A stretch of DNA of 21,739 bases from a virus (IMGVR_UViG_3300045988_065712); one strand, 5' to 3'; counted from the stretch's first letter, positions 1,942-21,566 are shown. Notes: generated by a model not told the origin, from the sequence alone. Numbers and translations are program-made.

Positions 1942-1955
1942 TTTTCGTCACCTCC

Positions 1956-4823: not shown

Positions 4824-4879
4824 GGTTTTCTCACTTCTGAATCGGGGTTAACCGGTCAGCCAGGCTGACCGGATGAAAA

Positions 4880-5398
4880 TCACAGGCCGATATTGCGGCG
4901 GTGTTGCTCCAGCCGGTCGACGCCGTTCACCTTCTCAATCATGTTGATGGTGTCGATTTCGACCAGCTCCTTACCGTCCATCGTCAGCCGGAAATAGGTG
5001 CAGACCACGGAGATTTTCGACTCGGTGTCTTCTCCCTGTTTACCCTCGCCGGTGTCGATTTCTTTCTGACGGCCACGCATGACCACCTCGACGGCCACCG
5101 TTTCGCCGGTATCGTCGCGCTGGTAAGAGCCTGCAAAACGAATCGGTACGGCATCCACACCGGTTGCGGCGTAAAGCTCCCAGATAACCGAATCCGGGAA
5201 GCCCCCGAGCGACCACTCCATTGACAGCGCATCGTCATCAAGGCCGAGGTCTACCGGTGCGCTGCCGTTCATCCCCGCACCGCGATAGTTTTCGAGCTTA
5301 CGGGTCAGTTTTGGCAGCGTGACGGACTTCGCGACGCCCTGATAGCTGTAGCCGTTCAGAAAGACGTTCATTAACTTGAGTTTGCGCGGCATTGCCAT
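4880..5398 (-). CDS. FII: Tail tube protein (P2 gpFII-like), 172 aa
   Basis: 172-aa ORF directly downstream of the sheath gene. Length and order match P2 FII. Confidence 0.9.
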   Translation of the reverse strand: MAMPRKLKLMNVFLNGYSYQGVAKSVTLPKLTRKLENYRGAGMNGSAPVDLGLDDDALSMEWSLGGFPDSVIWELYAATGVDAVPIRFAGSYQRDDTGETVAVEVVMRGRQKEIDTGEGKQGEDTESKISVVCTYFRLTMDGKELVEIDTINMIEKVNGVDRLEQHRRNIGL

Positions 5399-5410
5399 CG
5401 GTCAGGCTCC

Positions 5411-6601: not shown

Positions 6602-6660
6602 CCGTTTAACTCCGTGGTTAATGGGTGAGTGATATTTTCAGTTGTGCCGGAGATGTCAGG

Positions 6661-7254
6661 CTATTTGTCCCGGTTGGCTAAGGGATGACACAATTTATTC
6701 TTTGTCGCTGATGAGGGGAATTTTTTATAGAGCGTGGACAGGCCAATATCAAAAATCAGCGCCACGCGTTGACGTGATTCACCCGCAGCCAGCAACCGTC
6801 CTGCCTGTTCCCACTCACTCGCGGTGAGCTTCGGACGTCTGCCACCAATACGACCTTTAGCTCTGGTCGCTTCCAGTCCGGCGCGTGTCCGCTCGACAAT
6901 GAGTTCTCGTTCCATTTCAGCCAGGGCACCCATCACATGAAAGAAAAAACGCCCCATCGGCGTGCTGGTATCAATAGCATCCGTCAGGCTGCGAAAATTA
7001 ACGCCGCGTTCGCGCAGCTCCTCAACCAGAATGACCAGATGCCGCATACTACGCCCCAGCCTGTCCAGCTTCCAGACCACCAGTGTATCCCCCTCCGATA
7101 ATGTCCTGAGCAGTTTTTTCAGTCCCGGTCGGTCGGACTTAGTGCCGCTGATTTTATCCTCAAAAATCAGCTCACATCCTGCGCACTCCAGCGCGTTACG
7201 CTGCAATTCCGTGTTCTGGTCATTTGTTGACACGCGTACATAGCCAATAAGCAT
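6661..7254 (-). CDS. Site-specific DNA invertase, small serine recombinase of the Hin/Gin/Cin/Pin family
   Basis: N-terminus MLIGYVRVSTNDQNTELQRNALE... carries the catalytic-serine motif (VRVSTNDQ). Also GDTLVVWKLDRLGRS, FFHVMGALAEMERELIVERT and a C-terminal HTH-like segment (LSTLYKK). Start set at the third Met of the ORF-track ORF (7254), which has an AGGGGG Shine-Dalgarno about 6 nt upstream. The track start at 7260 is the alternative. Confidence 0.9.
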   Translation of the reverse strand: MLIGYVRVSTNDQNTELQRNALECAGCELIFEDKISGTKSDRPGLKKLLRTLSEGDTLVVWKLDRLGRSMRHLVILVEELRERGVNFRSLTDAIDTSTPMGRFFFHVMGALAEMERELIVERTRAGLEATRAKGRIGGRRPKLTASEWEQAGRLLAAGESRQRVALIFDIGLSTLYKKFPSSATKNKLCHPLANRDK

Positions 7255-7309
7255 GAGCATCCCCCTGAATAAAAACCGGAGATGATGCCAGTTACCCGTT
7301 GTCTCTGCA

Positions 7310-7335
7310 TTTTCATAAACGTTGGTTTGGGGGAA
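7310..7335. other. Candidate invertase crossover site (ttttcatAAACG-TT-GGTTTgggggaa)
   Basis: Contains the AAACx-NN-xGTTT core typical of Hin/Gin-family recombination sites. Lies about 55-80 bp upstream of the invertase start, where hix/gix-type sites sit, and at the 5' boundary of the promoterless fibre-tip cassette. Overall match to hix/gix is only partial. Confidence 0.4.
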
Positions 7336-7755
7336 GGCTCTGCACTGCCTGTTGGTGTGCCCGTTCCGTGGCCCTTAGAAACACCACCAACGGGCTGGCT
7401 AAAATGCAATGGTGCAGCATTTTCTTCTGAAATGTATCCCAAACTGGCAAAAGCCTACCCCACCAATAAATTACCGGATTTACGCGGTGAATTTATCCGT
7501 GGCTGGGATGATGGGCGCGGGATTGATGCGGGACGTACCCTGCTTTCAGGGCAGGATGGTACAAGTTTTTCTCATTACGGAGGTAATTTCGACATTGGGT
7601 CTGGTCATTCAATCAATAACTATGACCAAATTGTTTCTAACCAACCAGGATTTTCCCGTTTTTCATTTGCAGGGCCTTCACGAGGTGATGGGGTTAATTA
7701 TGTAACCATTCGTCCTCGTAACATTGCGTTTAATTATATCGTAAGGGCGGCATGA
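7322..7755 (+). CDS. Promoterless alternative tail-fibre C-terminal (receptor-binding tip) cassette, about 145 codons, opposite orientation to H
   Basis: ORF 7282..7755 encodes ...GEGSALPVGVPVPWPLETPPTGWLKCNGAAFSSEMYPKLAKAYPTNKLPDLRGEFIRGWDDGRGIDAGR..., a tail-collar-type fibre tip like the variable tip segments of Mu/P1-type invertible tail-fibre systems. No Shine-Dalgarno or promoter. The N-terminal 13 codons of the track ORF are read-through of the invertase promoter region. Confidence 0.7.
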
Positions 7756-7774
7756 AAACGTTCGTTTCGAACAG
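7749..7774. other. Second crossover-like site (ggcatgAAAACG-TT-CGTTTcgaacag) overlapping the cassette stop codon
   Basis: 12-mer aaacgttcgttt (7756..7767) is an 11/12 match to aaacgttggttt (7317..7328), with the same TT core on the same strand, so a direct repeat. Perfect 5-bp dyad AAACG/CGTTT around the core. Confidence 0.3.
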
Positions 7775-7803
7775 GAGGAGTAGCGGAGGGCTATGTTGCT
7801 TAG

Positions 7804-7851
7804 TTTGAAAATAGCTGGTCTTGCTGATGCGCATTGATGTAGCAAGACCAG
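7804..7851 (-). terminator. Probable rho-independent terminator of the V-W-J-I-H-G tail operon (11-bp stem, U-rich tail on minus strand)
   Basis: Perfect inverted repeat ctggtcttgct (7815..7825) and agcaagaccag (7841..7851) with a 15-nt loop. On the minus strand it lies 7 nt downstream of the G stop codon and is followed by CUAUUUUC. Confidence 0.5.
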
Positions 7852-7857
7852 TATGGT

Positions 7858-8226
7858 CTAAAGTTCCGGGATGACAGGCCAGTTAACATGCTCAGGGTCG
7901 GTTGTTACATCAACAGCCTTAACCTGATTCTTATATAAAAGCCACGCCGAAAGTTTAGCTCTGTTGGCATCGCTGATTTCACCCAGCATCAGCTCTGTGC
8001 GCCAGTCGAGCATAATTGCATCAGCGGCGGACAGTAATCGCTGTCGCTCATTTTCAGCAGCCTGGATGAGTTGTTCATGAGTCGGTGGGGGATTAATAAT
8101 TGCCATAGCCTCACTTCTGGTGATTGGCACAAGCCCTTCTTTGATAAAAGCATCCTGTGTGCCATACGCATCGTAGGCATATACGACGTTATTTTCATCT
8201 TTGTAATACTTCATCATTGTTATCAT
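7858..8226 (-). CDS. G: Tail fibre assembly chaperone (P2 gpG/Tfa-like function), 122 aa
   Basis: 122-aa ORF immediately downstream of the tail-fibre gene, with ATGA start/stop overlap with H. C-terminal ...HVNWPVIPEL is typical of Tfa chaperones. Shorter than, and unlike, P2 G as recalled. Confidence 0.8.
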   Translation of the reverse strand: MITMMKYYKDENNVVYAYDAYGTQDAFIKEGLVPITRSEAMAIINPPPTHEQLIQAAENERQRLLSAADAIMLDWRTELMLGEISDANRAKLSAWLLYKNQVKAVDVTTDPEHVNWPVIPEL

Positions 8227-9740
8227 TTTTTATCCACCTCTACCCAGGTAACATCTGACACTGTTCCTGAAAACTGCTGCACAATATAGGTCGCACCGGC
8301 AGGAACCATGAATGCGATAGTTGCTCTTTGCCCTGCAAGATTTGTTGTCTGAGAGCCGCGAAAATTAGCCGAATTACCATCCACATTAACGTTGGCGCTC
8401 AGAAATGAACTACCGTCAGACAGCACCGCATTGACGCTTACAAATATGGCGAAAGACTGGCTGTTGGTGTATACGACACCGAGATTTCTAGATTTCATTC
8501 CGCATTGACCAAACAACCCTTTCATATCTGAATAGTTTTGTGATGCAGCAAGTGATGATGCAGCAACACCAGATTCTGTTGATGTTCTGGAATCAGATAC
8601 GCGGATAATTCCCTTGTTTGTAGTGGTTGCATCATTAGTCTTGCCTTGCAGAGCTACAATATCCGCATAATTCATCGCTGCCGCTTTTGCTGTTGCAGCA
8701 AGCGTTTCAGATTCGGATACCCTTGATGATGTAAGTTGAACAATTCCTTTCTGTGTCGTAGTTGAATCCTGAGTTTTGTTTTGCAAAGATTTTATGTCCG
8801 TATAGTTTTGCGCGACAGCATTAGCTGTGGCTGCAATATCCTCTGCACCCGATACCCGCGATGAGGTTAACCGGACTAAACCCACCTGTGTTGTTGATGC
8901 GTCTTTAATACCAAGGTATGCAAGAAGACCGGCAACATCCTTCCCACTCAAATGAGTCAGCGTCTCATCCAGTGGCTGCTTACCTGACAGCGCATTGTTA
9001 ATGGTGGTACTGAATTTCGGGTCATTGTTAATGGCTGCGGCAATTTCTTTCAGTGTGTCCAGCGTGGCTGGCGCACCGTTAATCAGAGCGGTAATAGCGG
9101 CCTGAACAAACTCAGTGGTCGCAATCCGCGTGGTGTTATTTCCTGCGGCAGGCGTCGGCGCTTTTGGTTCTCCGGTAAATGTCGGATTATGTTTCTGTGC
9201 ATACTGGGTATGAGGATCCTGTGCGGCAATGTGGTTTCTCATCTGGTCATCCACATACAGCCTTAATTCCAGGACTTCATCATCCACGTATTTACGGGTC
9301 GCCAGTACCACCGACGGGTCGATTTTCAGCGTGATAGCTTCGGTATTCGTGACAACCAGAATCATGCGGATAGTCTGGGTACGACCGCTGCCTTCCTGCA
9401 ACTGCGGTTTGTACGTTTCCGGGCAGTTCGCCACCGCAATGAGTACGCCTTCATCATCATAAAGCCCAATCTCACGGATCCAGAATCCGCCCTCGTTCTC
9501 AGGGATGATTTGCTCCGCAATAATCTGGCTCTGGTTGTTCGGGTCAACACTCAGAAGATTCAGCGGCGCGATGCGTTTCTGGTTAATCAGTTTTGTCTGT
9601 GCCGGGTCTGGTGTCGGCAAGACACCATTCGCATCACCAACTGCCATTTGCGTCAGATTCAGCTTACTGCCGAGCATCGTCGCGTTAGCCAGCCGTGCTG
9701 CGCCCTGATTAGTCAGAATGGCGTAGTATTTCACTGTCAT
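8223..9740 (-). CDS. H: Tail fibre protein (P2 gpH-like N-terminus, divergent C-terminal half), 505 aa
   Basis: N-terminal region (AVGDANGVLPTP..., GGFWIREIGLYDDEGVLIAVANCPETYKPQLQEGSGRTQTIRMILVV) resembles the conserved baseplate-attachment domain of P2 H. Central triple repeat and a distinct C-terminal domain. Positioned between I and G. Confidence 0.88.
   Translation of the reverse strand: MTVKYYAILTNQGAARLANATMLGSKLNLTQMAVGDANGVLPTPDPAQTKLINQKRIAPLNLLSVDPNNQSQIIAEQIIPENEGGFWIREIGLYDDEGVLIAVANCPETYKPQLQEGSGRTQTIRMILVVTNTEAITLKIDPSVVLATRKYVDDEVLELRLYVDDQMRNHIAAQDPHTQYAQKHNPTFTGEPKAPTPAAGNNTTRIATTEFVQAAITALINGAPATLDTLKEIAAAINNDPKFSTTINNALSGKQPLDETLTHLSGKDVAGLLAYLGIKDASTTQVGLVRLTSSRVSGAEDIAATANAVAQNYTDIKSLQNKTQDSTTTQKGIVQLTSSRVSESETLAATAKAAAMNYADIVALQGKTNDATTTNKGIIRVSDSRTSTESGVAASSLAASQNYSDMKGLFGQCGMKSRNLGVVYTNSQSFAIFVSVNAVLSDGSSFLSANVNVDGNSANFRGSQTTNLAGQRATIAFMVPAGATYIVQQFSGTVSDVTWVEVDKK
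8511..8900 (-). repeat. Three tandem copies of a roughly 45-codon (135-bp) repeat inside the tail-fibre shaft of H
   Basis: Protein residues about 281-410: ASTTQVGLVRLTSSRVSGAEDIAATANAVAQNYTDIKSLQNKTQD / STTTQKGIVQLTSSRVSESETLAATAKAAAMNYADIVALQGKTND / ATTTNKGIIRVSDSRTSTESGVAASSLAASQNYSDMKGLFGQ. The DNA-level periodicity is visible. Confidence 0.65.
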
Positions 9741-10348
9741 GCGTTTACTCTCAGGTTATCAATTAAATGAATGGCCGAGGCCGGGAAATAATCCCCTCCG
9801 ACAATAATGGCCTCCGGGGTGTAGGGATAAACCGTCAGGGCGTCGCCGTGATAGCATCCTGCACCGGCAAAAATGTTGCCGGTTGTACTTAAACTGATAG
9901 CCAGTCCCGTCAGATGGCGGCTTGCAGGTTTTGCATCAGCAACGAGACGCTCCAGCTCCTGATACATTTCCTCGGTAATACCCTGCTCAAGCACGCCAAC
10001 AACGATGCGGAACGTCCCCGGCTCCTCGTTGAGCTGCCACCACTCCCTCACCTCAATCAGATAGCCGAGCGGCTCCACCACACGGCGAATCGCACCAATA
10101 GTGCCCTTATGGCAGTGAATGAAATACGCATCGCGGATAACAGCGCGTTTTGTCGCTTCCGGCCACTTATCATCCCAGCGGTCAACCGAAAATGACCACG
10201 CCAGCCACGGCAGCAGATTTGCCGGACAGGTATCCGGGTTCCACAGCTCACGAATACTGACCGGCGTTTTTTCAATTTCCGCACAGGCTCTTGCGGCGGC
10301 GACTTCAAGCGGTGATGAGCCGGTCGGCAGCAGTCGCGAATCACTCAT
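9737..10348 (-). CDS. I: Baseplate protein (P2 gpI-like), 203 aa
   Basis: ORF between J and H with 4-nt overlap with H. Resembles the P2 gpI N-terminus as recalled. Longer than the 176 aa of P2 I. Confidence 0.85.
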   Translation of the reverse strand: MSDSRLLPTGSSPLEVAAARACAEIEKTPVSIRELWNPDTCPANLLPWLAWSFSVDRWDDKWPEATKRAVIRDAYFIHCHKGTIGAIRRVVEPLGYLIEVREWWQLNEEPGTFRIVVGVLEQGITEEMYQELERLVADAKPASRHLTGLAISLSTTGNIFAGAGCYHGDALTVYPYTPEAIIVGGDYFPASAIHLIDNLRVNA

Positions 10349-11249
10349 CCGAGCCTCCGGTCACAACGCGGTATTCGGTACAGAAAGACGCCTGCGTATT
10401 GTTGAGCACGATGTCGGCCAGTGGTGCAGCCAGTTCGACACGCTGCACACCTTCCACATGCAAAGCGGCATAAATGGCAGACAGACGGATGTCGCGCCCC
10501 AGCCGGTGCTGTGCCGTGATATACGTTTCCAGTTTTTTCACGGCGGCAGCGCGAATGGGTTCGCTTTCGGGACCAGGGTAAAGGTAAAGCGTGGCGTTTA
10601 TCTGGTATTCAACAATGGCGGCAGACTGCACGGTCACGCGGTCGGCCACCGGCCTGACGTCCTCACCATTAAGGGCGTTACGCACCACGGCCAGCAGGTC
10701 TTCGGATGCGACGCCGTTATTTTCACGTGACAGCACGGAGATGGTGACGCAGGCCGGAGACGGACTGGTGACAGAGATATCCGCGACACGCCCGTCGGCA
10801 CTGCGACCATGATACTGATAGGCTCCCACCGACCCGGCGACGCTTAAGCCCTCAAAAGCCTGCTGAATACGCAGACGATAATCTGTGTCAGATTCCATCA
10901 CTGCCGGTGTCGGCGGAATGGTCGAATCATCTGCCGGGGTGATAATCAGGCGCGTGGTGTTGTAATTGGCACCAATTACATCAAGGTCATTACCGGCAGC
11001 ACAGGCCAGCATCACCGCCCGTGCGGCCTCATTCACACGCTGACGCCAGATAAGCTCACGATAAGCATTTTCCTCCAGCAGTTTGACAAGAGGCTCAGAT
11101 TCCAGCGTCAGGGTACGGGCGACCGCCTCCTGCTGGTCTTCCGGGTAAAGGGAAATCAGTGTCGCCTTGCGTTCGGCAAGAATGGTTTCAAAGTCCAGCT
11201 CCTCGACCACATCCGGTGCGGGTAGCTGGTTCAGGTCGATAATCTGCAT
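10341..11249 (-). CDS. J: Baseplate protein (P2 gpJ-like, gp6-like wedge), 302 aa
   Basis: 302-aa ORF, same length as P2 gpJ, between W and I with overlapping stop/start. Confidence 0.9.
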   Translation of the reverse strand: MQIIDLNQLPAPDVVEELDFETILAERKATLISLYPEDQQEAVARTLTLESEPLVKLLEENAYRELIWRQRVNEAARAVMLACAAGNDLDVIGANYNTTRLIITPADDSTIPPTPAVMESDTDYRLRIQQAFEGLSVAGSVGAYQYHGRSADGRVADISVTSPSPACVTISVLSRENNGVASEDLLAVVRNALNGEDVRPVADRVTVQSAAIVEYQINATLYLYPGPESEPIRAAAVKKLETYITAQHRLGRDIRLSAIYAALHVEGVQRVELAAPLADIVLNNTQASFCTEYRVVTGGSDE

Positions 11250-11253
11250 GGTT

Positions 11254-11601
11254 TCAACTCACAGGGATGGTTAACGAAAGTGGCTGGCCGGTCTCGTTGT
11301 GCTGGCCGGTTAACGTGACCGTCATTCGCCCGTCAAAACTGCGCTCAGTGGTGACGGATGACAGGGTGACGCGGGGTTCCCATTTCAGCACCGCCATGTA
11401 ACAGGCGACCTTAATCTGCAACTCAAGCGCCGGGGTCTGCGGCTGGTCAATCATTGACGCCAGCAACGAGCCGTAATCACGACGCATCACCCGTGAGCCG
11501 ACCGGTGTGCGCAGGATATCGCCGATACTCTGGCTGATATGCTCAAGGTCAGTGACAGTCAGGCCATCACTGCGATTCATTCCGAGATAACGCGCTGTCA
11601 T
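11254..11601 (-). CDS. W: Baseplate wedge protein (P2 gpW-like, gp25-like), 115 aa
   Basis: 115-aa ORF, same length as P2 gpW, between V and J. Confidence 0.9.
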   Translation of the reverse strand: MTARYLGMNRSDGLTVTDLEHISQSIGDILRTPVGSRVMRRDYGSLLASMIDQPQTPALELQIKVACYMAVLKWEPRVTLSSVTTERSFDGRMTVTLTGQHNETGQPLSLTIPVS

Positions 11602-12233
11602 AGAGGGCTCCCGGTTGTGCCGCCGCTGTCGCCGGGGTGTTTATGGGTATGCAGTACCTTACCGTTTGATGAGAGTTCACCGCCGGTGTGTTCAATGTTG
11701 CCGCGCATCGTCCCGCCCTTCTGTACTTCCAGCGTGCCGGTAATCAGCCTGTTGGTGCAGACCACCTCCGGTGTGTCCAGGGTGACGCGGGTTGATGCTT
11801 TCACCATGACCACCGGCACCGTGGCGGTAACAGAATCAGAAGCCGTCACGCTGGCCGTTTTAATTCCGCTTACCGTGAGTGCACTGGTTTCGGGTTCATA
11901 CTCAATCACCGCCCCGTCAGGGAAACGGATATGCAGGGCATCCGCCGACGCAGACGGCGCGGGGTTATCGCCGGAATAAATCCCCGGCAGAACAAACGCC
12001 GTGTCAAGTTCACCGCCCACGGCCAGAATCAGCACCTGCTCCCCCACGGAAGGTGCCCACCATGTGCGCGAACGCCCGGCACGACAGGTCAGCCACTGAA
12101 GCCAGTCGGTGCACATGCCGCCGGTCTGCACACGGCAGCGACCGGCTTTAAGGTTGGTTTCGACGACAAGGCCGGTGCGGATCATGTTGCGCAGTGCGCG
12201 CGCGAGTTCCTGGATATTTGCGAGAGTGTTCAT
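11598..12233 (-). CDS. V: Baseplate spike / central plug protein (P2 gpV-like), 211 aa
   Basis: 211-aa ORF, same length as P2 gpV, first gene of the V-W-J-I-H-G block. C-terminal Gly/His-rich tip (HTHKHPGDSGGTTGSPL). Confidence 0.9.
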   Translation of the reverse strand: MNTLANIQELARALRNMIRTGLVVETNLKAGRCRVQTGGMCTDWLQWLTCRAGRSRTWWAPSVGEQVLILAVGGELDTAFVLPGIYSGDNPAPSASADALHIRFPDGAVIEYEPETSALTVSGIKTASVTASDSVTATVPVVMVKASTRVTLDTPEVVCTNRLITGTLEVQKGGTMRGNIEHTGGELSSNGKVLHTHKHPGDSGGTTGSPL

Positions 12234-12244
12234 AACGGGAAGGA

Positions 12245-12266
12245 TGCCGCCGGGTCATACCGGCGG
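12245..12266 (-). other. GC-rich hairpin in the S-V intergenic region (8-bp stem gccgccgg/ccggcggc, 6-nt loop); possible operon boundary element
   Basis: Inverted repeat read directly from the sequence between the S stop (12300) and V start (12233). No U-tract follows on the minus strand, so an intrinsic terminator is not supported. The P2 late promoter for V would be expected in this interval. Confidence 0.3.
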
Positions 12267-12299
12267 CAATGTAACGATGAGGTGTCGGGAATGGCACAA

Positions 12300-12752
12300 C
12301 TAACGGTCGAGGTGAGCCAGGATAATCTCTTCAATCATCTGCACATCCTCACCGGTAAAGCCGAGCAGAGGACGCGCCGGATAATCAATTTTCTTACCGT
12401 CTTTCCGGGTTTCTTCCGACAGACCGAACTGATGCACACTGGCTATTTTCGGTGACTTCCCGCCGTAAAACTCCATTGATGCCTGTTCAGGGCTGGCGCG
12501 GATATGCAAAAAACGACTGGTGATAAGTTTCGCAAACATTTTTCGCTTAACGCGACCGGTCTTTTTTCTGGCGCTCTGCTGCTGGCGTGGTGCGTAGGGT
12601 GTGCCGTCCGGGGCTTTCTGTGCCATCACCCGGCGCTGCTGACTCTGCCGCAGACGTTTCGCCAGTTCGGCGCTCAGTCGCCGACGCCCTGACGGTGACA
12701 GCGATTCAATAAGTCCGGTCAGCCGGTCTTCAAAACGCTTAAACTCATTCAT
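12300..12752 (-). CDS. S: Tail completion protein (P2 gpS-like), 150 aa
   Basis: 150-aa ORF, same length as P2 gpS, after R. Confidence 0.9.
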   Translation of the reverse strand: MNEFKRFEDRLTGLIESLSPSGRRRLSAELAKRLRQSQQRRVMAQKAPDGTPYAPRQQQSARKKTGRVKRKMFAKLITSRFLHIRASPEQASMEFYGGKSPKIASVHQFGLSEETRKDGKKIDYPARPLLGFTGEDVQMIEEIILAHLDR

Positions 12753-13212
12753 CCCACTTGCTCACCAGTTCGCCATTGATATAAAGCTCCACCGGGCGGG
12801 TGACCGGCTCCGGCGGCGGAGGTTCCGGGATATTCTTCACATGCAGTGCGCCGTCCACCTCACTGACCAGCGTTCGCTCGGTCAGCATCAGGCTGATGCT
12901 GATATCAAAGCTGCTGTCATTGTTGATGTCTGCATAAAACGTGAAGCCCTTTTTCTGACCTGCGTCGGTGGTCATGATGTCGGGCTGATTTTCCCGCAGC
13001 CACGCCAGCACCGGCACGATGAGCAGGTCAAAATCACCGGTAAAGTCGGTCACAATGACATTGAGCGTGTAACGCTTTTCAAATGACAGCGACGTCGCCA
13101 GTGTGGAGGCAATACTCCCGTTATCCACGAATATCCGCAGCATCTCGGGACTGGTTTTCAGCACCGTGACGGCATCAGTCAGCGCCCTGCGCAGGCTGTC
13201 GGGTTTGAGCAT
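12745..13212 (-). CDS. R: Tail completion protein (P2 gpR-like), 155 aa
   Basis: 155-aa ORF, same length as P2 gpR, between the lysis genes and S. Confidence 0.9.
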   Translation of the reverse strand: MLKPDSLRRALTDAVTVLKTSPEMLRIFVDNGSIASTLATSLSFEKRYTLNVIVTDFTGDFDLLIVPVLAWLRENQPDIMTTDAGQKKGFTFYADINNDSSFDISISLMLTERTLVSEVDGALHVKNIPEPPPPEPVTRPVELYINGELVSKWDE

Positions 13213-13465
13213 CGTTTTCGTCCTGACAGTGTTTAATCATTTTTACCTGGCTGGCACAGCGTGCCAGCGCGTTCTCAAGCTGCCGGATATCGGCACTTAA
13301 ATCACCGTTCGTCTCCGGGTCACTGCCCGGCATCGGGCAAAGGCTCACTTTCGGGCAGGCGTTGTGGACAATCACTGGCGTCAGTGCAGGCCGGGCGCTG
13401 GTGCAACCGGCGCACAGCATCAGGCAGGTCAGCGCCGTACCAGCGGCGAAAATCTTCGTTTTCAT
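13175..13465 (-). CDS. lysC: Outer-membrane lipoprotein spanin (Rz1-like; P2 LysC-like), 96 aa, embedded out of frame in the lysB/R overlap
   Basis: 96-aa ORF with signal peptide and lipobox (LMLCAGC-T), then a Pro-rich periplasmic segment. Lies within the 3' half of lysB in another frame and extends into the 5' end of R, the classic Rz/Rz1 architecture. Confidence 0.75.
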   Translation of the reverse strand: MKTKIFAAGTALTCLMLCAGCTSARPALTPVIVHNACPKVSLCPMPGSDPETNGDLSADIRQLENALARCASQVKMIKHCQDENDAQTRQPAQGAD

Positions 13466-13745
13466 TCAGTAACCTCGTGATGGTTTTCTCGCGCTGTGCT
13501 TCACGCTTCGCGGCGTTCTCCAGCTCCTGACGCAGTTCCACCTGCGCCAGCTCGTTTTTGTCTGCCCTGGTAAGGGCAACATGAAGCTGGTTTTTCAGCA
13601 TGGTGATGGTCGTCTGCTGCCCGCTGGCGACATTGTTTGCCCTGTCCAGCGAGACGCGCAGGCTGGCGTTTTCATGCTTCACCAGAAACAGTCCCGCCAC
13701 CGCCAGCGATAACAACACGACCAGCACAATCATCAGCTTTGACAT
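13320..13745 (-). CDS. lysB: Inner-membrane spanin (Rz-like; P2 LysB-like), 141 aa
   Basis: 141-aa ORF with N-terminal transmembrane segment (LMIVLVVLLSLAVAGLFLV) followed by a coiled-coil-like periplasmic domain. Position after lysA. Confidence 0.85.
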   Translation of the reverse strand: MSKLMIVLVVLLSLAVAGLFLVKHENASLRVSLDRANNVASGQQTTITMLKNQLHVALTRADKNELAQVELRQELENAAKREAQREKTITRLLNENEDFRRWYGADLPDAVRRLHQRPACTDASDCPQRLPESEPLPDAGQ

Positions 13746-14158
13746 GGTTCCCGCCCCTCAAAACGCTGACGACAGGCCGTACGTATCAGCCGGAATAACA
13801 GCGCCGCCACGAGATAAATCAGCGCGGTAAAAATCCACCCGGCAGCGACCAGCGAGATAAACGTCGCCACCATCACCACCAGACCCATCGCCCGTCTGCA
13901 CCACGGCACCGGCTGCAAATACAGCGACGTGACAATCTTCACGGCCAGCGATTCCGGCGGAAGCTCCCGCCCGTAGCGTTCAAGTACATACTCAGTGGCA
14001 TACACGCCGACACCACCGGCAACCACACAGATAACTGTCGCCAGAATCGCCCAGGCGGCGACAAAATTGACGGCCACGCTCTGCGGGTAAATCAGGGACA
14101 GTGCCAGCATCAGCGCCAGCGACACGTTCAGCATCAGTGAAAGGGATAATTTCTTCAT
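13733..14158 (-). CDS. lysA: Lysis timing / antiholin-like membrane protein (P2 LysA-like), 141 aa
   Basis: 141-aa ORF with multiple hydrophobic transmembrane segments, between K and lysB. Length matches P2 LysA. Confidence 0.8.
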   Translation of the reverse strand: MKKLSLSLMLNVSLALMLALSLIYPQSVAVNFVAAWAILATVICVVAGGVGVYATEYVLERYGRELPPESLAVKIVTSLYLQPVPWCRRAMGLVVMVATFISLVAAGWIFTALIYLVAALLFRLIRTACRQRFEGREPCQS

Positions 14159-14172
14159 GGTGTTTACTCCAT

Positions 14173-14670
14173 TTAAGCCGGTACGCCGCCAGCGGTACGC
14201 CAGACGGTGACCAGTTTTTCCAGTGAATGCTCACGCTGACCGTAACCGGCTCCTGGCAGGGACGCCCAGATATTGCGACAGCGTGAAATGGCGCGCTCAA
14301 TGCGTCCCGCCCGGATGTCATCCAGTGCACCGCGTTCGCGGATCAACTGAATGGCAAGTCTGTCCTGTGACAACGGACTGAAATCCGGCAGGGCAAGCTG
14401 TTTGCGGTAGTGCGGCCAGAACAGGTAAAGCTGCTGATAGCGACCGGAAGCCGTGGATTTTTCACCGCGACGGTTAAACACCTTCGCCGGTCGGCCATGC
14501 GCGAACGGGTGGTCACTGTAGTCGGTGAATATTTCCGGCTTTCCGTCCAGTCCGGTGACTATCACGTCATAGCCCCGGTTTTTCGTCAGCGGGTGATTCG
14601 CCGTCCCTTCGGACACCGCCAGCATGTCGAGAAAGGCGGCGATATTCTGATGCGTGTTAATTACCGGCAT
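14173..14670 (-). CDS. K: Endolysin (P2 gpK-like lysozyme/transglycosylase), 165 aa
   Basis: 165-aa ORF directly downstream of the holin. Length and position match P2 gpK. Confidence 0.88.
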   Translation of the reverse strand: MPVINTHQNIAAFLDMLAVSEGTANHPLTKNRGYDVIVTGLDGKPEIFTDYSDHPFAHGRPAKVFNRRGEKSTASGRYQQLYLFWPHYRKQLALPDFSPLSQDRLAIQLIRERGALDDIRAGRIERAISRCRNIWASLPGAGYGQREHSLEKLVTVWRTAGGVPA

Positions 14671-14951
14671 TACGGTTTCCCCCTGCCCTTAAAGCGGCGC
14701 TGAATGGCAATCTCAATCACCTGATAACCGGCGATACCCAGCATGGAGCCGATGCCGCACACCGCAGGCAGTGACAGGTCAGGAAACTGCACCAGAACAA
14801 CACCGGCAACCATCGAAACAAAACCACCGAGCAACATGCGCCCGATAAACAGACGCGGGGTGATGGGTTCACCACCGGCAAGCACCTTGCCGACAACAAT
14901 CAGCACCCCAATCATGAAAAGCGACAGGACGCTTTTTTCTTCTGCTGTCAT
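14670..14951 (-). CDS. Y: Holin (P2 gpY-like), 93 aa
   Basis: 93-aa ORF with hydrophobic transmembrane segments and a charged C-terminus (RRFKGRGKP), immediately upstream of the endolysin. Confidence 0.85.
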   Translation of the reverse strand: MTAEEKSVLSLFMIGVLIVVGKVLAGGEPITPRLFIGRMLLGGFVSMVAGVVLVQFPDLSLPAVCGIGSMLGIAGYQVIEIAIQRRFKGRGKP

Positions 14952-14954
14952 GCG

Positions 14955-15158
14955 TTACTCCCACAGATTGACAGTTTCAGCCACGGGCGCGGTCTGAACG
15001 TCGGGCAGTTCGACGGCGGTGCCGTGTGGCAGCACCGCACCCAGTTCAGCCAGTCCCGGATTTGCGGCGAGCACGGTCTCAACCACGCCCTCAGTGCGCC
15101 CGTAATACCGGACACAAATGGCGTCGAGCGTGTCGCCCTGTAGCGCAAAGGTCTTCAT
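14955..15158 (-). CDS. X: Tail protein X (P2 gpX-like, LysM-like), 67 aa
   Basis: Track ORF 14955..15227 trimmed to the internal Met (MKTFALQGDTLDAICVRYYGRT...) giving 67 aa, the P2 gpX length. Start overlaps the L stop by 1 nt (TGATG on minus strand), checked on the sequence. Confidence 0.82.
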   Translation of the reverse strand: MKTFALQGDTLDAICVRYYGRTEGVVETVLAANPGLAELGAVLPHGTAVELPDVQTAPVAETVNLWE

Positions 15159-15667
15159 CAGATTTGACTCACGATGCAGCGCGGCTTGTCCTGGATACGC
15201 GCCACCGCCCAGCGCATATCCCGCCACAGTTCATCAATGGTGCTGTCAATGCTGTCAGCCTTCTTGTCGCCTTTCGCACTGGCATCCACGCCGCGATAAC
15301 GCTCATAAAGCGACGCGGTCGCCATCGCGCACACGGCGCGCTCGTAGTAAAAAACTCTGATGCTTTCACCGTCGATGTCGTCCGCCGGGACGTCCGCCAG
15401 ACGCGTAAAACCGGCGGCAATTTTCTGTTCGCGGTACTCGTACAGCTCCGCATTCGTCTCCGCCATGCCTGACTTGATGGCCTCACGCAGACGGGCGGGG
15501 GCGACGGTCTGCTCAAGGCGCATACGTTCCCGGACGCGCTTCGGGTCGATATCGGGAAAAAAGAACGTGTTTTTAATCACCGGCTCGTCGCCTGCCGGTT
15601 GCGGGATGACCACCGTACCCTCACCGGACACGGGAGCCTCCTTTCGCGGAATAATCAGCGTCATCAT
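15158..15667 (-). CDS. L: Capsid completion / head completion protein (P2 gpL-like), 169 aa
   Basis: Track ORF 15158..15727 trimmed to MMTLIIPRKEAPVSGEG... (169 aa, the P2 gpL length). Purine-rich Shine-Dalgarno region upstream of 15667. Confidence 0.85.
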   Translation of the reverse strand: MMTLIIPRKEAPVSGEGTVVIPQPAGDEPVIKNTFFFPDIDPKRVRERMRLEQTVAPARLREAIKSGMAETNAELYEYREQKIAAGFTRLADVPADDIDGESIRVFYYERAVCAMATASLYERYRGVDASAKGDKKADSIDSTIDELWRDMRWAVARIQDKPRCIVSQI

Positions 15668-15766
15668 GACTACCTCTGAAAAGTCGGGCGGTGGACGCCG
15701 GTACAGCGTCAGGTGATTCACCCTCACTGACCGGCGTGCCGCCCTGGCGCGGGGCGCATTCGGTTG

Positions 15767-16510
15767 TTAACTGGCTTTCTTTTTCGGGCGTCCACGTTTT
15801 GCCGGTGTCACGCTCCGGCTCTTACGCGGGGTACGGGTGGCCGCTTTGGGCTGCGGCTCCGGCTTCGGTTTCAGCTCCCGCTCCAGTCGTTCAATCTCTT
15901 TTTTGACACCTGCCTGACAGTCGAGCTGTGTCGCACGTTGCAGGTGAGCCAGCGCACCGGCGGCATCACCACCATCACGCAGAAACAGACCTGTGATTTT
16001 GTGCAGCTTTGCGCGCACTTCATCAGGCATGTCAGCCGTGGCGGTCAGTTCAAGGGTCTCCGTCAGCAGGCGGGTATCCACAGACTCACCGGCAGCGTGA
16101 GCACGCATGGCCGCGAGCGCCACCTCCTCGGTGAACATGTACGGCGGGGTGCGGCGGTGTTTACCCGGCATGGTCAGACCGTACTTCAGGGCATAACGGG
16201 CAATCTCCAGCGCACCGGCAATATCGCCGGTATCCAGACGCCACAGCATGACCGTCATCAGAATGTCATCCTGTGCGCCTTTGCCCTGCTCCAGCACGCC
16301 GTTCACCCACGGCAACCAGAACGGCAGCAGTTCGCGTTTTTTCGCGGCCTTAAGCTCTTTTGAATAAATCGCTTTCAGTGTGCGCTGGTCTGCGGCCAGC
16401 TTGACCAGCATCTGCTCATAGACAGTTGCATGTCGCAGCGGGGCGGCTTCCCGCTGCGCGGTCATCGCTGCCGAGACCCGCATCATGTGGCGCTGTGCGG
16501 GACTCGTCAT
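15767..16510 (-). CDS. M: Terminase small subunit (P2 gpM-like), 247 aa
   Basis: 247-aa ORF, same length as P2 gpM, with basic C-terminal tail (RTPRKSRSVTPAKRGRPKKKAS). Follows the major capsid gene. Confidence 0.9.
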   Translation of the reverse strand: MTSPAQRHMMRVSAAMTAQREAAPLRHATVYEQMLVKLAADQRTLKAIYSKELKAAKKRELLPFWLPWVNGVLEQGKGAQDDILMTVMLWRLDTGDIAGALEIARYALKYGLTMPGKHRRTPPYMFTEEVALAAMRAHAAGESVDTRLLTETLELTATADMPDEVRAKLHKITGLFLRDGGDAAGALAHLQRATQLDCQAGVKKEIERLERELKPKPEPQPKAATRTPRKSRSVTPAKRGRPKKKAS

Positions 16511-16513
16511 CGG

Positions 16514-17587
16514 TTACGCTCCCGGCTCTGCGGTCACTTTGGCCGGTGTGGAAAAATCACCGACCTTAATTTTTTCCACCAGACAACCGGCGGCGTAGTC
16601 TTCCACCACGTAATCAATGTTCATTGACTCGTAGTTCTCCACGCGGTCGAGTTTCGGGTTTTCCTCAATCACGCGGCGATGGCTGTCATCCATGTAGTAG
16701 ATGGACAGGTTTTCCAGCTTCGTGATGAGCATCGCATCCGCCGGGAAGTACGGGACGCGTACCGCCGGCAGGTTACCGATGCGTTTCTGGCTGATGATGA
16801 CGTCAGCGGCCAGCATTTCGCTGTTGTCCTGCTCCTTGTTAACGATGGGGAAATACTTGTCCGCCAGTAGCTGACGTCCCACAATCACCACAAGGTCAGG
16901 GTCTTCCTGATACCACGGCTCAATCAGGTTGTTGGTCGCATCCATCACCAGTGCATCGAGGCTGGCATAATCACCGCCCTTACCCACGCGGATGACCTCA
17001 GAGGTCGTGTGACCTTCCTCGTCAGTAACCTTGCTCATCACGCGCGCCGGGGCTTCATTGCGGTATTTCTGCAGCCAGCCGACCGCCACATCCTGCAGCA
17101 TCGGGTTACTGCTGCGGTCAGAGGTTTCGGCACGCCTCACGCCGTTAAAACCGGCCATGATTAAATCAAGGGACTGGCGTTTGATAATGGCGTTACGGAC
17201 ACGGAGCTGGAAATCCTGATAACGCGCCCACAGGTCCAGCGTTTTGTAGCGGATATAAAAATCGAAGTTAATCTGGTCGCATTCGTACTTGTTTGACGCC
17301 AGCTTCGAGAAGTCCTTCGGCTGACGCTCGGTGCCACCGGCGGTGTCGGTGGTGCTGGCGATGGAGCCGGTGACACCGATACCAATTTTTTCCCCTTTCA
17401 TTTCGCTGACCGGCACAATGTTGATGCGGGTCAGAAAGTCAGAGGACTCCTGCATGGTGTTCATCAGGGTCTGGGTGACCGACGGTTCAACGGTGAATTT
17501 TTTCGACACATCACCGGCGTCGATGCCGTTCAGTTCGGCAACACGGGACAGGTAAGCATTAAATTTAAAGCGGGTTTCCTGGCGCAT
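16514..17587 (-). CDS. N: Major capsid protein (P2 gpN-like), 357 aa
   Basis: 357-aa ORF, same length as P2 gpN, between scaffold O and M. Confidence 0.9.
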   Translation of the reverse strand: MRQETRFKFNAYLSRVAELNGIDAGDVSKKFTVEPSVTQTLMNTMQESSDFLTRINIVPVSEMKGEKIGIGVTGSIASTTDTAGGTERQPKDFSKLASNKYECDQINFDFYIRYKTLDLWARYQDFQLRVRNAIIKRQSLDLIMAGFNGVRRAETSDRSSNPMLQDVAVGWLQKYRNEAPARVMSKVTDEEGHTTSEVIRVGKGGDYASLDALVMDATNNLIEPWYQEDPDLVVIVGRQLLADKYFPIVNKEQDNSEMLAADVIISQKRIGNLPAVRVPYFPADAMLITKLENLSIYYMDDSHRRVIEENPKLDRVENYESMNIDYVVEDYAAGCLVEKIKVGDFSTPAKVTAEPGA

Positions 17588-17645
17588 AGTTTTTCCTGAA
17601 ATTAAGAGTTAATCGTGAAGGTTTTCCCGGACTGACTGACGCCGG

Positions 17646-18500
17646 TCAGCAGTTCGTCATCAGGGCGTCACCGCCACCACCGGTGGCCTTGCTGCGGCGC
17701 TGCTGGGTCAGACTTTCGGTGTGGTCGAGACTGTTTTTCAGGCGGGTGAATGCCTGGCTGGTTTCATCCGCCCTGTCAGTCACCTCCTGCTTAAGTGCAG
17801 AAAAGGCGGTTTCCATCTCAGAGAGGCGCTGCTCAGTGGCGCTCAGTTTTTCCTGCACATGTTCAGCAACAGCGGTCACCGCTTCATGCACGTCATTCAG
17901 ACGGGCGTCATCGCTGGCCTGTTTGCGGCCAAAAATGGATTTCACCTTTTCGGTCAGGGCGGTGAACACGGTTTCAGGCAGGTCTTCAAATTCCAGCTCA
18001 ACAGGCGTTGCCACTGAAATCAGGTTTTCAGGGCTTAATTTGAAGCGGTTCAGGGGGTTGTGTTTTGCCGTGCGGCAGAATTCCAGGTATTCCGTGCCGA
18101 GGCTTGCCGGGTCATCGGTGACGGCCAGACCCACCAGATAACATTTGCCGGTGTTGGCAAAGTTCGGCTGAATTTCCATTGAGGTGTAGACCTTCTGCGC
18201 GGCCTTGTTCATCGCGATAAGGTCATCGGTCGGGGTGATTTTCGCAAACAGCGCCCATTTGCCTTTCAGCGCCGAATCATCGTCAATCTTTTCGGCCTTC
18301 AGTTCGGCCACATCGCCATAACGCTTAAAAATACCGTCAGGCAGGATGCCGCGCAGATGTTCCAGGTTAATGCGGCAACCATAGACTCGCGGGTCAAAGG
18401 TTTCGGCCATTTCCTGAATATCCTGCGCACTGATGACACGCCCGTCACAGGTGTCACCCTCAACGCCGATACGAAAGAATTTTGAGACTTTTTTTGCCAT
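17646..18500 (-). CDS. O: Capsid scaffolding protein (P2 gpO-like), 284 aa
   Basis: Track ORF 17646..18566 trimmed to the internal Met (MAKKVSKFFRIGVEGDT...) giving 284 aa, the P2 gpO length. CAT at 18498..18500 checked. Confidence 0.85.
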   Translation of the reverse strand: MAKKVSKFFRIGVEGDTCDGRVISAQDIQEMAETFDPRVYGCRINLEHLRGILPDGIFKRYGDVAELKAEKIDDDSALKGKWALFAKITPTDDLIAMNKAAQKVYTSMEIQPNFANTGKCYLVGLAVTDDPASLGTEYLEFCRTAKHNPLNRFKLSPENLISVATPVELEFEDLPETVFTALTEKVKSIFGRKQASDDARLNDVHEAVTAVAEHVQEKLSATEQRLSEMETAFSALKQEVTDRADETSQAFTRLKNSLDHTESLTQQRRSKATGGGGDALMTNC

Positions 18501-18673: not shown

Positions 18674-20475
18674 ATGACCATCACCACAGACACCACTCTT
18701 TTACACGACCCGCGTCGTCAGGCGGCGCTGCTGTACTGGCAGGGGTTTTCCGTGCCGCAGATTGCCGCCATGTTGCAGATGAAACGTCCGACGGTGCAGA
18801 GCTGGAAACAGCGCGACGGCTGGGACAGCGTTGCCCCCATCAGCCGTGTCGAAATGAGTCTGGAAGCGCGACTGACCCAGCTCATCATCAAACCGCAGAA
18901 AACCGGCGGTGACTTCAAGGAAATTGACCTGCTGGGACGCCAGATTGAACGACTGGCACGGGTAAACCGCTACAGTCAGACCGGCAACGAGGCAGACCTT
19001 AATCCGAACGTCGCTAACCGCAACAAAGGCGGGCGTCGCAAACCGAAAAAGAATTTTTTCAGTGACGAGGCCATCGAAAAGCTGGAGCAGATTTTCTTTG
19101 AGCAGTCTTTCGAATATCAGTTGCACTGGTATCGCGCCGGGCTTGAGCACCGCATCCGCGATATCCTGAAATCCCGCCAGATTGGCGCGACGTTTTATTT
19201 TTCCCGCGAGGCGCTGCTGCGCGCCCTGAAAACCGGTCATAACCAGATTTTTCTGTCGGCCAGTAAAACGCAGGCGTATGTGTTCCGCGAATACATCATC
19301 GCCTTTGCCCGGCTGGTTGACGTTGACCTGACCGGTGACCCGATTGTCCTGGGCAATAACGGCGCAAAACTGATTTTTCTCGGCACCAACTCCAACACCG
19401 CACAGAGCCATAACGGCGACCTGTACGTCGACGAGATTTTCTGGATCCCGAATTTTCAGGTACTGCGTAAGGTGGCATCAGGTATGGCCTCACAGAGTCA
19501 CCTGCGCTCGACCTATTTCTCCACCCCGTCCACGCTGGCGCACGACGCCTACCCGTTCTGGTCGGGTGAACTGTTCAACCGGGGACGCGCCAGCGCCGCC
19601 GAACGCGTGGAAATCGACGTCAGTCATAACGCCCTTGCCGGAGGTCTTCTCTGTGCGGACGGCCAGTGGCGGCAGATTGTCACCATTGAGGACGCCCTGA
19701 AAGGCGGCTGCACGCTGTTCGACATTGAGCAGCTCAAACGTGAAAACAGCGCCGACGATTTTAAAAACCTGTTCATGTGTGAATTTGTTGACGACAAGGC
19801 GTCGGTGTTCCCGTTCGAGGAGCTGCAACGCTGCATGGTCGACACGCTGGAAGAATGGGAAGACTATGCGCCGTTTGCCGCGAATCCGTTCGGCTCCCGC
19901 CCGGTCTGGATTGGTTACGACCCGTCACACCGTGGCGACAGCGCCGGATGCGTGGTGCTGGCACCGCCGGGGCCGGATGCGTGGTGCTGGCACCGCCGGT
20001 GGTGGCCGGTGGCAAATTCAGAATACTTGAGCGTCACCAGTGGAAAGGCATGGACTTTGCCACCCAGGCTGAATCCATCCGCAAACTCACCGAAAAATAT
20101 AACGTCGAATACATCGGTATTGATGCCACCGGCCTCGGTGTCGGCGTGTTCCAGCTCGTGCGCTCGTTCTATCCCGCCGCGCGCGACATCCGCTACACGC
20201 CGGAAATGAAAACCGCAATGGTGCTCAAGGCAAAAGACGTCATCCGCCGTGGCTGTCTGGAATATGACGTCAGCGCCACCGACATCACCAGCTCGTTTAT
20301 GGCTATCCGCAAGACCATGACCAGCAGCGGACGCAGCGCCACCTATGAGGCCAGCCGCAGCGAGGAAGCCAGCCACGCCGACCTCGCCTGGGCGACCATG
20401 CACGCCCTGTTAAATGAGCCACTCACCGCGGGTATCAGCACTCCGCTGACATCCACCATTCTGGAGTTTTACTGA
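18674..20475 (+). pseudogene. P: Terminase large subunit (P2 gpP-like), frame disrupted by a 29-bp tandem duplication at 19942..19999
   Basis: Track shows two overlapping fragments: 18644..20209 (N-terminal part, then a W/R/C-rich nonsense tail) and 19855..20475 (C-terminal part in another frame). Start set at MTITTDTTLL (ATG 18674, GAGGT Shine-Dalgarno). Span minus 29 bp is 1773 nt, i.e. 590 codons plus stop, the P2 gpP length. Confidence 0.85.
19942..19999 (+). repeat. Imperfect 29-bp tandem duplication inside P (28/29 identical)
   Basis: 19942..19970 cgccggatgcgtggtgctggcaccgccgg and 19971..19999 ggccggatgcgtggtgctggcaccgccgg, compared base by base. The peptide GCVVLAPP is encoded twice. 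Confidence 0.92.
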
Positions 20476-21538
20476 TGAGCAAGAAAAAAGGGAAAACACC
20501 GCAACCTGCGGCAAAAACAATGACCGCCAGCGCCCCGAAAATGGAGACATTCACCTTTGGTGAGCCGGTGCCGGTACTCGACCGCCGTGACATTCTGGAT
20601 TACATCGAGTGCATCAGTAACGGCAGATGGTATGAGCCGCCGGTCAGCTTTACCGATGGTATGAGCCACCGGTCAGCTTTACCGGTCTGGCAAAAAGCCT
20701 GCGTGCTGCCGTGCATCACAGTTCACCGATTTACGTCAAACGTAATATTCTGGCTTCAACGTTTATTCCGCACCCGTGGCTTTCGCAACAGGATTTCAGC
20801 CGCTTTGTGCTGGATTTTCTGGTGTTCGGTAATGCGTTTCTGGAAAAGCGTTACAGCACCACCGGTAAGGTCATCAGACTGGAAACCTCACCGGCAAAAT
20901 ATACCCGCCGTGGCGTGGAGGAGGATGTTTACTGGTGGGTGCCGTCCTTCAACGAACCGACAGCCTTCACGCCCGGCTCCGTGTTTCACCTGCTGGAGCC
21001 GGATATTAATCAGGAGCTGTACGGCCTGCCGGAATATCTCAGCGCCCTTAACTCTGCCTGGCTGAATGAGTCGGCCACACTGTTCCGCCGCAAGTATTAC
21101 GAAAACGGCGCGCATGCCGGATACATCATGTACGTTACCGATGCCGTGCAGGATCGCAACGATATCGAAATGCTTCGCGAAAACATGGTTAAGTCGAAAG
21201 GCCGCAACAACTTTAAAAACCTGTTTCTCTATGCCCCACAGGGGAAAGCCGACGGCATTAAAATTATCCCGCTCAGTGAAGTGGCAACGAAGGACGATTT
21301 TTTTAATATCAAAAAAGCCAGCGCCGCTGACCTGCTGGACGCGCACCGCATCCCCTTTCAGTTGATGGGAGGCAAGCCGGAGAACGTCGGGTCGCTGGGT
21401 GATATTGAGAAAGTGGCAAAGGTCTTTGTCCGCAATGAGCTTATCCCGTTACAGGACAGGATTCGGGAAATAAACGGCTGGCTCGGTCAGGAGGTCATCC
21501 GCTTTAAAAACTACTCACTGGACACAGACAACGGCTGA
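20475..21538 (+). pseudogene. Q: Portal protein (P2 gpQ-like), frame disrupted by a 29-bp tandem duplication at 20627..20684
   Basis: Track shows 20475..21065 (N-terminal 62 aa, then nonsense) and 20711..21538 (rest of portal in another frame). Span minus 29 bp is 1035 nt, i.e. 344 codons plus stop, the P2 gpQ length. ATG overlaps the P stop (TGATG). Confidence 0.85.
20627..20684 (+). repeat. Imperfect 29-bp tandem duplication inside Q (28/29 identical)
   Basis: 20627..20655 atggtatgagccgccggtcagctttaccg and 20656..20684 atggtatgagccaccggtcagctttaccg. Single G/A difference at 20639 vs 20668. Confidence 0.92.
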
Positions 21539-21542
21539 ACAT

Positions 21543-21566
21543 CGCCGCCTGCGGGCGGCTTTTTTA
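21543..21566 (+). terminator. Rho-independent terminator downstream of Q
   Basis: Stem gccgcc (21544..21549) / ggcggc (21554..21559), loop tgcg, followed by T-tract tttttt (21560..21565). Starts 5 nt after the Q stop codon. Confidence 0.7.

Follow-up and report, generated by a model that had tools for sequence, protein, structure and literature searches.

Why should two adjacent genes of an otherwise intact prophage module each be interrupted by a tandem duplication of exactly the same length? The locus that raises this question lies in a single stretch of DNA of 21,739 nt, hereafter the window, and the genes concerned, P and Q, are the two that package the viral DNA. The original prediction, made from the sequence alone, held that random decay would not be expected to give this pattern, read the duplications as not very recent, and listed as possible explanations a reversible switch, a prophage maintained as a head-tail producer, and an artefact of assembly or engineering. 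Our analysis agrees that random decay is a poor fit and that an artefact belongs on the list, and parts company with the original prediction over switching, over a maintained producer and over old duplications. The artefact proposal itself is best divided, in that assembly is the best-supported source of the duplications while engineering is hard to reconcile with scattered alleles of a second phage type elsewhere in the window.

The late region of a P2-like prophage

The prophage is P2-like (Peduovirus), of the E. coli type, and the window covers its late region from ogr to Q. Its open reading frames and their translations place ogr and the genes from D to O on the minus strand, with P and then Q running divergently on the plus strand. 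The genes are collinear with the P2-like late region (ogr-D-U-T-E-FII-FI ... V-S-R-lys-K-Y-X-L-M-N-O, with P-Q divergent), and the order is identical in over 60 related, Pfam-assigned loci from public assemblies and matches that of P2-like phage records. Likewise, a Pfam scan of the window fragments assigns Terminase_5, Terminase_6N and Terminase_6C to P and Phage_portal to Q. From ogr to Q the window has the gene content and gene order of the late region of bacteriophage P2 and other Peduovirus members, in which P is the large terminase, Q is the portal and the two form the P-Q operon; it differs from them in that P and Q are each split by a 29-nt duplication. With a 29-nt gap scored as mismatch, the window P-Q sequence is 94.6–95.2% identical to those of the P2-like phages pro483, P24B2, L-413C and P2. 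The tail-fibre region departs from that of P2 and contains an invertase module, as is common among P2-like prophages of E. coli; a search of the invertase region for inverted repeats of 16 nt or longer gave none.

The coordinates of the features discussed here are collected in Table 1. All of the other late genes from D to O (25 of 25) are full-length and free of internal stops, and ogr has 72 of its 72 codons, only its stop being lost to the window edge, in agreement with the claim that the late genes from ogr to O are full-length.

Table 1. Coordinates of the late genes, the repeat copies and the segment between the duplication junctions
Feature	Coordinates	Strand	Content or basis
Intact late genes	299..18500	(-)	D, U, T, E, FII, FI, invertase/tail-fibre module, H, I, J, W, V, S, R, lysB, lysA, K, Y, X, L, M, N, O
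P, large terminase subunit, interrupted	18674..20475	(+)	Translation, Pfam, relatives
P repeat copy 1	19941..19969	(+)	GCGCCGGATGCGTGGTGCTGGCACCGCCG; part of the left-hand piece; C19942 is a natural C/T SNP
P repeat copy 2	19970..19998	(+)	GGGCCGG...; G19971 is the sole window base found in neither parental type
Middle segment between duplication junctions, 685 nt	19970..20654	(+)	Type B 20064-20100, type A 20187-20442, type B 20503-20639
Q, portal, interrupted	20475..21538	(+)	Pfam, relatives
Q repeat copy 1	20626..20654	(+)	Type-B allele G20639, phased with type-B sites 20503-20604 to its left
Q repeat copy 2	20655..20683	(+)	Type-A allele A20668, phased with 27 type-A sites to its right, 20668-21271

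P begins at the ATG at 18674 and keeps its native frame to 19969, giving about 432 native residues before an out-of-frame stop at 20209; its C-terminal nuclease domain lies in another frame, which extends up to the TGA at 20473–20475. Pfam recognizes Terminase_5 and Terminase_6N in the 511-aa P product and Terminase_6C in the 19855–20475 frame, and the break falls between Terminase_6N (residues 164–386), on the ATPase side, and Terminase_6C, the nuclease, which is now in a different frame. In relatives P has 590 aa, and the record for phage L-413C names the homologue as P, terminase large subunit. Q begins at the ATG at 20475 and yields about 60 native residues before it passes out of frame and stops at 21065, and the portal domain (PF04860) is detected on a 275-aa Q fragment in the 20711–21538 frame, compared with a Q of 344 aa in relatives; phage records name the homologue as the portal.

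Structure of the two duplications

Tandem Repeats Finder reports only two strong tandem arrays in the whole window, both of period 29, one in P (19943–19999, score 114) and one in Q (20626–20684, score 111); the remaining five arrays have periods of 6–11 nt and scores of at most 37. Each duplication lengthens its gene by 29 nt, which amounts to a frame shift of +2. The program and a direct reading of the sequence bear out the description given from the sequence alone, namely two near-perfect 29-bp tandem duplications in P and Q, each with a +2 shift and one difference between its copies, and the coordinates that went with it were accurate. In P the sole difference between the copies is C19942/G19971, and the repeat can be written in the equivalent form of an exact 28-mer (19943–19970 = 19972–19999) on both sides of the single G19971. 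In Q the sole difference is G20639/A20668, a synonymous CCG/CCA change at the third codon position. Both sites can be written as a 28-mer, a G and the 28-mer again, and both point differences fall on natural polymorphic sites; at 19942 the relatives carry C in 27 cases and T in 6. Strings that mark the two junctions are GGCACCGCCGGGGCCGGATGCGTGG and GTCAGCTTTACCGATGGTATGAGCC.

It is informative to ask what kind of junction this is. Microhomology at either junction amounts to 1 nt or less, and the natural direct repeats that do lie nearby (GCCGG copies 23 nt apart and CCGGTC copies 13 nt apart) predict slippage units of 23 and 13 nt, not 29. Slippage between flanking direct repeats can be rejected on these grounds, there being no microhomology to support it and the GCCGG and CCGGTC repeats predicting other unit lengths.

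A mosaic of two parental types

The copies of the repeats become easier to understand when the window is compared with two types of related prophage, which we refer to as type A (loci L009 and L031) and type B (loci L005 and L037). In this three-way comparison, 105 sites separate A from B, and the window has the A allele at 90 of them, the B allele at 15 and neither at 0, distributed over 13 alternating runs. Along P and Q the window is type A as far as 19906, B at 19942–20100, A at 20187–20442, B at 20503–20639 and A from 20668 on. The two largest type-B patches in the window fall within P-Q, and the duplications bound the mosaic segment. Random decay, as the original prediction had already judged, does not account for the pattern. 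From 299 to 18500 the window is type A except for isolated type-B alleles at 353, 16277, 16790–16877 and 17381. Wherever a base of the window departs from that of its own clade, it is always the type-B allele, including the rare alleles 20547A and 20604A that are confined to L037 and L041.

Of the type-A loci, L009 differs from the window at 1 base in 14.4 kb, and L031 differs by 16 substitutions in approximately 20.9 kb with no indels besides the two 29-nt insertions, which are also the only P-Q indels relative to all of the relatives examined. Of the 16 differences from L031, 11 lie between the two duplication sites; the intervening 627 nt have 9 mismatches, as against 0 in the flanks (18600–19940 and 20685–21307). 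For the middle segment, the closest sequence in any complete E. coli genome is no more than 99.0% identical. Furthermore, G19971 apart, there is no private substitution (that is, a base absent from both parental types) anywhere in the approximately 21 kb of the window. By a rough, post-hoc estimate, two 29-nt units placed at random would coincide with both of the outermost switch intervals with a probability of about 0.001.

Each copy of the Q repeat carries the parental allele of its own flank, which indicates that the copies come from different templates and that the junction is a staggered join of two haplotypes. The point differences had been read as a sign of age, arguing against very recent duplication; with the Q copies carrying two natural SNP alleles in phase with their flanks, and no other private substitutions present, that reading is mistaken. 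Point mutation after duplication can be set aside as the source of the mismatches for the same reasons, as the approximately 21 kb hold no other private substitution and each mismatch coincides with a natural SNP. Two further candidates, suggested by the form of 28-mer, G and 28-mer, can be rejected, as they leave the phasing of the alleles unaccounted for: the target-site duplication or excision footprint of a transposon, there being no element between the copies, and a repeat duplication by CRISPR Cas1-Cas2 (28 nt plus G), there being no spacer between them. No E. coli IS is known to make duplications of 28–29 nt.

Search for the duplications in relatives and public collections

A megablast search with the doubled segments found neither duplication in approximately 1,500 complete E. 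coli genomes with this gene pair; the top-ranked matches among these genomes all had the single-copy span, 72 nt against the 101 nt of the window, and none was full-length. Neither duplication is present in P2-like phage records. Exact scans of the GTDB species-representative genomes and of IMG/VR found neither junction string, and a scan of JGI metagenomes for the one in Q was likewise negative. At the protein level, exact look-up of the frameshift-containing products (P 511/521 aa, P 206/175 aa and Q 196 aa) among approximately 15 billion predicted proteins, with alternative start codons included, returned zero records, and the gene-position index had none either.

The comparison with the same prophage in related strains had been proposed as a check. 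The closest relatives, 0.007–0.08% divergent from the window, have an intact 590-aa P and an intact 344-aa Q. All of the close relatives fetched are single-copy at both sites, and no intermediate with only one of the duplications was seen among them. Judged by these relatives, the lesions would appear to be unique to the window. The second proposed check, for similar duplications in related prophages, turned up neither of the two, and the lesions that the relatives do carry are of other kinds (nonsense codons, a 1-nt deletion, an IS21 insertion and large deletions). The relatives occupy two integration sites, fieF-pfkA and pflB-focA.

It is in light of these results that the proposal of reversible switching has to be weighed. 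It would make the repeats a programmed on/off switch, in which loss of a copy restores P and Q and packaging competence becomes phase-variable. Tandem repeats can be lost through slippage, the loss of one copy would restore the frame exactly at both lesions, and the window shares with slipped-strand duplications and contingency loci a frame-shifting tandem duplicate that is revertible in principle. However, it differs from those loci in having no flanking microhomology, non-identical copies and a tract that is not simple-sequence. A contingency locus should also show both states in the population, whereas the repeat state is present in no relative or public sequence scanned, the approximately 1,500 complete E. 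coli genomes included, and among relatives neither site varies in length. Two independent reversions would moreover be required to recover packaging, and the copies, which share 1 nt per border and differ at SNP sites, hold the alleles of two parental phages, an arrangement that slippage cannot yield. We give a programmed switch next to no credence.

The proposal of a maintained head-tail producer supposes that the host keeps the element for the empty particles or the free, tailocin-like contractile tails that it makes, packaging having been lost under selection. The selectivity of the damage is what such a history would leave behind, with the tail, baseplate, lysis genes and ogr all intact and only the portal and terminase broken. 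Yet these other genes are equally intact in relatives with 99.9% identity and no lesion of their own, which leaves no time for selection to have acted. A tailocin or domesticated tail element is also a poor description of a locus in which the head genes N, O, M and L are kept and in which the lesions, unique among the relatives compared, are conserved in no other genome examined. Selection for a tail producer is unsupported and, in our view, highly improbable.

A probable origin in chimeric assembly

The comparisons above suggest that the duplications are overlaps left un-collapsed when two haplotypes entered a chimeric assembly or consensus, and that they are probably absent from the DNA of the organism. 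A sample with two very similar P2-like prophages, whether in one strain or in two, would have been merged into one consensus, and the reconstruction would have switched between the variants within the conserved P-Q genes, such that a piece of approximately 685 nt (19970–20654) was set between two type-A pieces. The 28–29 nt common to neighbouring pieces would then have been left unmerged, with a tandem duplicate at each join as the result. The equal length of the duplications would reflect a fixed overlap parameter (k-1 = 28 for k = 29, plus one filler base), and the point differences would arise because the copies come from different haplotypes or because of a contig-end base. We infer that software and not the cell made the joins from what is observed directly: a two-parent mosaic with alleles in phase, duplications of one length at junctions that lack microhomology, and relatives free of the lesions.

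Several details of the joins are consistent with this. At the P site the left piece stops 28 nt past the SNP and the right 28-mer starts 1 nt past it, an arrangement that an untrimmed k-1 overlap would give at k = 29 with a single filler base added. The three-way comparison puts the duplications at switches between haplotype blocks, their length is parameter-like, and they bear no biological junction signature. At Q the adjacent copies carry the alternative alleles; at P the odd base falls on a C/T SNP but is a G, which is neither allele.

Among the documented kinds of assembly error is the false duplication in which the two alleles are retained next to each other (PMC9516828). The window resembles such heterotype false duplications, or un-collapsed contig overlaps, in its adjacent copies with different alleles, in their position at a haplotype-block junction and in the false disruption of genes that would follow (PMC9516828). 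It differs from them in scale, with copies of 28–29 nt, about one k-mer, in place of the kilobase-to-megabase haplotigs of vertebrates (PMC9516828), and in the presumed source of its haplotypes, a pair of prophages or strains as opposed to the two parental chromosomes. The literature on false duplications and strain-chimeric contigs lends support of a general kind only.

A pure exact de Bruijn overlap fits the P site and fails at the Q site, which has an internal mismatch. Since the Q overlap holds a G/A mismatch, an assembly origin needs either an overlap-tolerant joiner or read-based polishing that re-phased each copy. Other observations also count against an artefact: the single filler G is not accounted for, the inner A/B switches at 20100–20187 and 20442–20503 have no duplication, and the absence of any other indel relative to L031 in approximately 20.9 kb indicates that the assembly is not generally poor. 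P2-like phages also recombine naturally, and a fine mosaic is on its own no proof of a chimeric assembly.

Deliberate engineering or editing would be a different kind of artefact, for example a 685-nt P-Q fragment cloned in with duplicated ends, or a synthetic change to the record. The structure does amount to a replacement of 627 nt by a homologous 685-nt fragment, extended by 29 nt on each side. Still, vector, scar and restriction-site features are missing from the junctions, the fragment that would have been inserted is a natural mosaic of the A/B/A type in its own right, and the isolated type-B alleles 3–19 kb away are beyond the reach of a local construct, all of which leaves engineering only a very small chance of being correct.

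Real lesions as a possible alternative to an assembly error

It is also worth considering that the lesions may be real and the product of plain decay. Two real 29-nt duplications in one type-A lineage would have inactivated P and Q, and a short-patch homologous exchange with a co-resident or infecting type-B phage would have followed; the insertion heterologies would have stopped extension of the heteroduplex, such that the conversion tract ended at the duplications with the inner Q copy converted, and the outcome would be a freshly defective prophage. This account explains the alleles of the first and second Q copies with no recourse to software, and it draws on processes that are visible in the data, in that P2-like prophages are natural mosaics and single type-B alleles occur elsewhere in the window. 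The rest of the window also gives no sign of sequencing error. Against it, two independent duplications of equal length are needed 685 nt apart with no usable microhomology, the position of G19971 on a SNP site becomes an extra coincidence, and neither lesion, nor an intermediate with one of them, occurs in any relative. Duplications of this sort would require illegitimate blunt-type joining, for which E. coli is not known to have an efficient pathway. We regard real lesions followed by exchange as the main rival to an assembly origin, possible but doubtful.

The natural record of damage to these genes is relevant here, as P and Q are often broken by other lesions. Among the related loci, P has nonsense codons in L055, L059 and L060, Q has a 1-nt deletion in an A-run in L045, and P/Q are affected by an IS21 insertion in L035 and by large deletions in L046–L052 and L054. 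A lesion-agnostic look at C-termini on record found a 275-aa Q and a 141-aa P, and the contigs behind them bear unrelated lesions. The window is thus like the cryptic P2-like remnants of E. coli and Shigella in having broken packaging genes within a recognisable prophage, and many broken P and Q genes are present in public contigs. In contrast, the natural cases of prophage pseudogenisation among these loci are nonsense codons, 1-nt homopolymer indels, IS insertions and large deletions, and none is a k-mer-sized tandem duplicate with two alleles.

A variant in which the junctions are real would have a P-Q segment of about 0.7 kb swapped between two near-identical prophages in one cell, with a fixed stagger of 28–29 nt at both ends. 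Two staggered breaks repaired by fill-in and end joining may be a candidate process. Were it true, a single event would have disabled both packaging genes and left an inducible lysis-plus-tail producer, although we see only a slim chance that it is.

The biological importance of the locus is small, and its value is methodological. If the lesions are real, the window is one freshly broken copy of a prophage undergoing ordinary decay; if they are artefacts of assembly, it is an ordinary and probably functional P2-like phage. More generally, k-mer-sized tandem duplicates that carry two SNP alleles at haplotype-block switches are a fingerprint of chimeric joins in samples with multiple prophages or strains. 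Such joins give conserved phage genes, those for the terminase and portal among them, the false look of pseudogenes, and would thereby distort calls of prophage intactness or "domestication".

Public assemblies contain other anomalies at the same place, which also speak for an assembly origin. One metagenome scaffold (L053) has a 10-N scaffold gap in Q exactly at the Q SNP, two further sequences (L062 and L064) have N-runs of 17 and 10 N, respectively, at or near the P site, and another metagenome scaffold (L058) has a 28-nt fold-back duplication approximately 20 nt from the position of the window P repeat. As far as these sequences go, the P-Q stretch is a recurrent point of breakage or mis-joining when related P2-like sequences are co-assembled.

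Allele mixing and possible assembly breaks

Isolated alleles of the type-B prophages (L005/L037) are found at window positions 353, 16277, 16790-16877 and 17381, amid sequence of type A, and each isolated type-B allele has type-A alleles on both sides within about 70-470 nt. The A/B mixing seen in P (large terminase) and Q (portal) thus reaches across the entire window. At P-Q, runs of N in three independent assemblies of related P2-like loci (Table) suggest that contigs in these conserved genes repeatedly break at strain SNPs. Another related locus, L058, a metagenome scaffold (ENA ERZ28620419), carries a 28-nt insertion in P that creates an inverted repeat, perfect over 19 nt, in which GTGGTGCTGGCACCACCGG is paired with its reverse complement. 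This fold-back duplication lies ~20 nt downstream of the position of the window's P repeat. Either the assembly introduced it as a hairpin artefact, or it arose as a quasi-palindrome mutation by template switching.

Decay and integration sites among relatives

Genuine prophage decay is present in four relatives, in the form of an IS21-family insertion or of internal deletions (Table). Prophages inserted at fieF-pfkA and others at pflB-focA, two different places in the chromosome, share one tape-measure allele, and it is therefore plausible that single strains carry two such P2-like prophages.

Tail-fibre module and the region beyond Q

In L007, a near-identical prophage, a 1,596-nt block of the tail-fibre module (7319-8914) is reversed relative to the window, and a search of the invertase region found no inverted repeat of at least 16 nt at its borders. 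By its gene content and this comparison, the module looks like a Gin/Cin-like host-range switch, with both states apparently captured, one in the window and the other in L007.

Immediately 3′ of the Q stop codon, a GC-rich hairpin (CGCCGCC ... GGCGGC) is followed by TTTTTT and resembles an intrinsic terminator of the P-Q operon. The window extends only 200 nt past Q, leaving its own cargo outside view; in related prophages, for example L011, L016, L040 and L043 (Table), the slot downstream of Q carries varying genes with a likely defence role, namely SIR2, reverse transcriptases or retron Ec48-type genes, AAA_15/AAA_21 ATPases and GmrSD.

Table. Features of the window and of related P2-like loci
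Locus	Position	Feature	Detail
Window	6661-9740	Tail-fibre module	Invertase, alternative fibre C-terminus, chaperone
Window	6661-7254	Serine invertase	Resolvase + HTH_7 domains
Window	7282-7755	Alternative fibre C-terminus	Opposite strand; Collar domain
Window	within 6661-9740	Chaperone gene	
Window	about 7319-8914	Invertible part of module	
Window	21543-21565	Putative terminator	
L053	~2500-2520	Run of 10 N	Exactly at Q SNP
L062	~3890-3910	Run of 17 N	Exactly at window's P-repeat site
L064	~2380-2400	Run of 10 N	Near window's P-repeat site
L058	3900-3990	Fold-back insertion	In P
L035	91-3713	IS21-family insertion	Splits Q
L008	8621-9856	Internal deletion	Distant late genes fused
L001	8531-9524	Internal deletion	Distant late genes fused
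L020	11074-11517	Internal deletion	Distant late genes fused
L011	3015-5609	Slot beyond Q	
L016	4183-5730	Slot beyond Q	
L040	721-2651	Slot beyond Q	
L043	576-2276	Slot beyond Q
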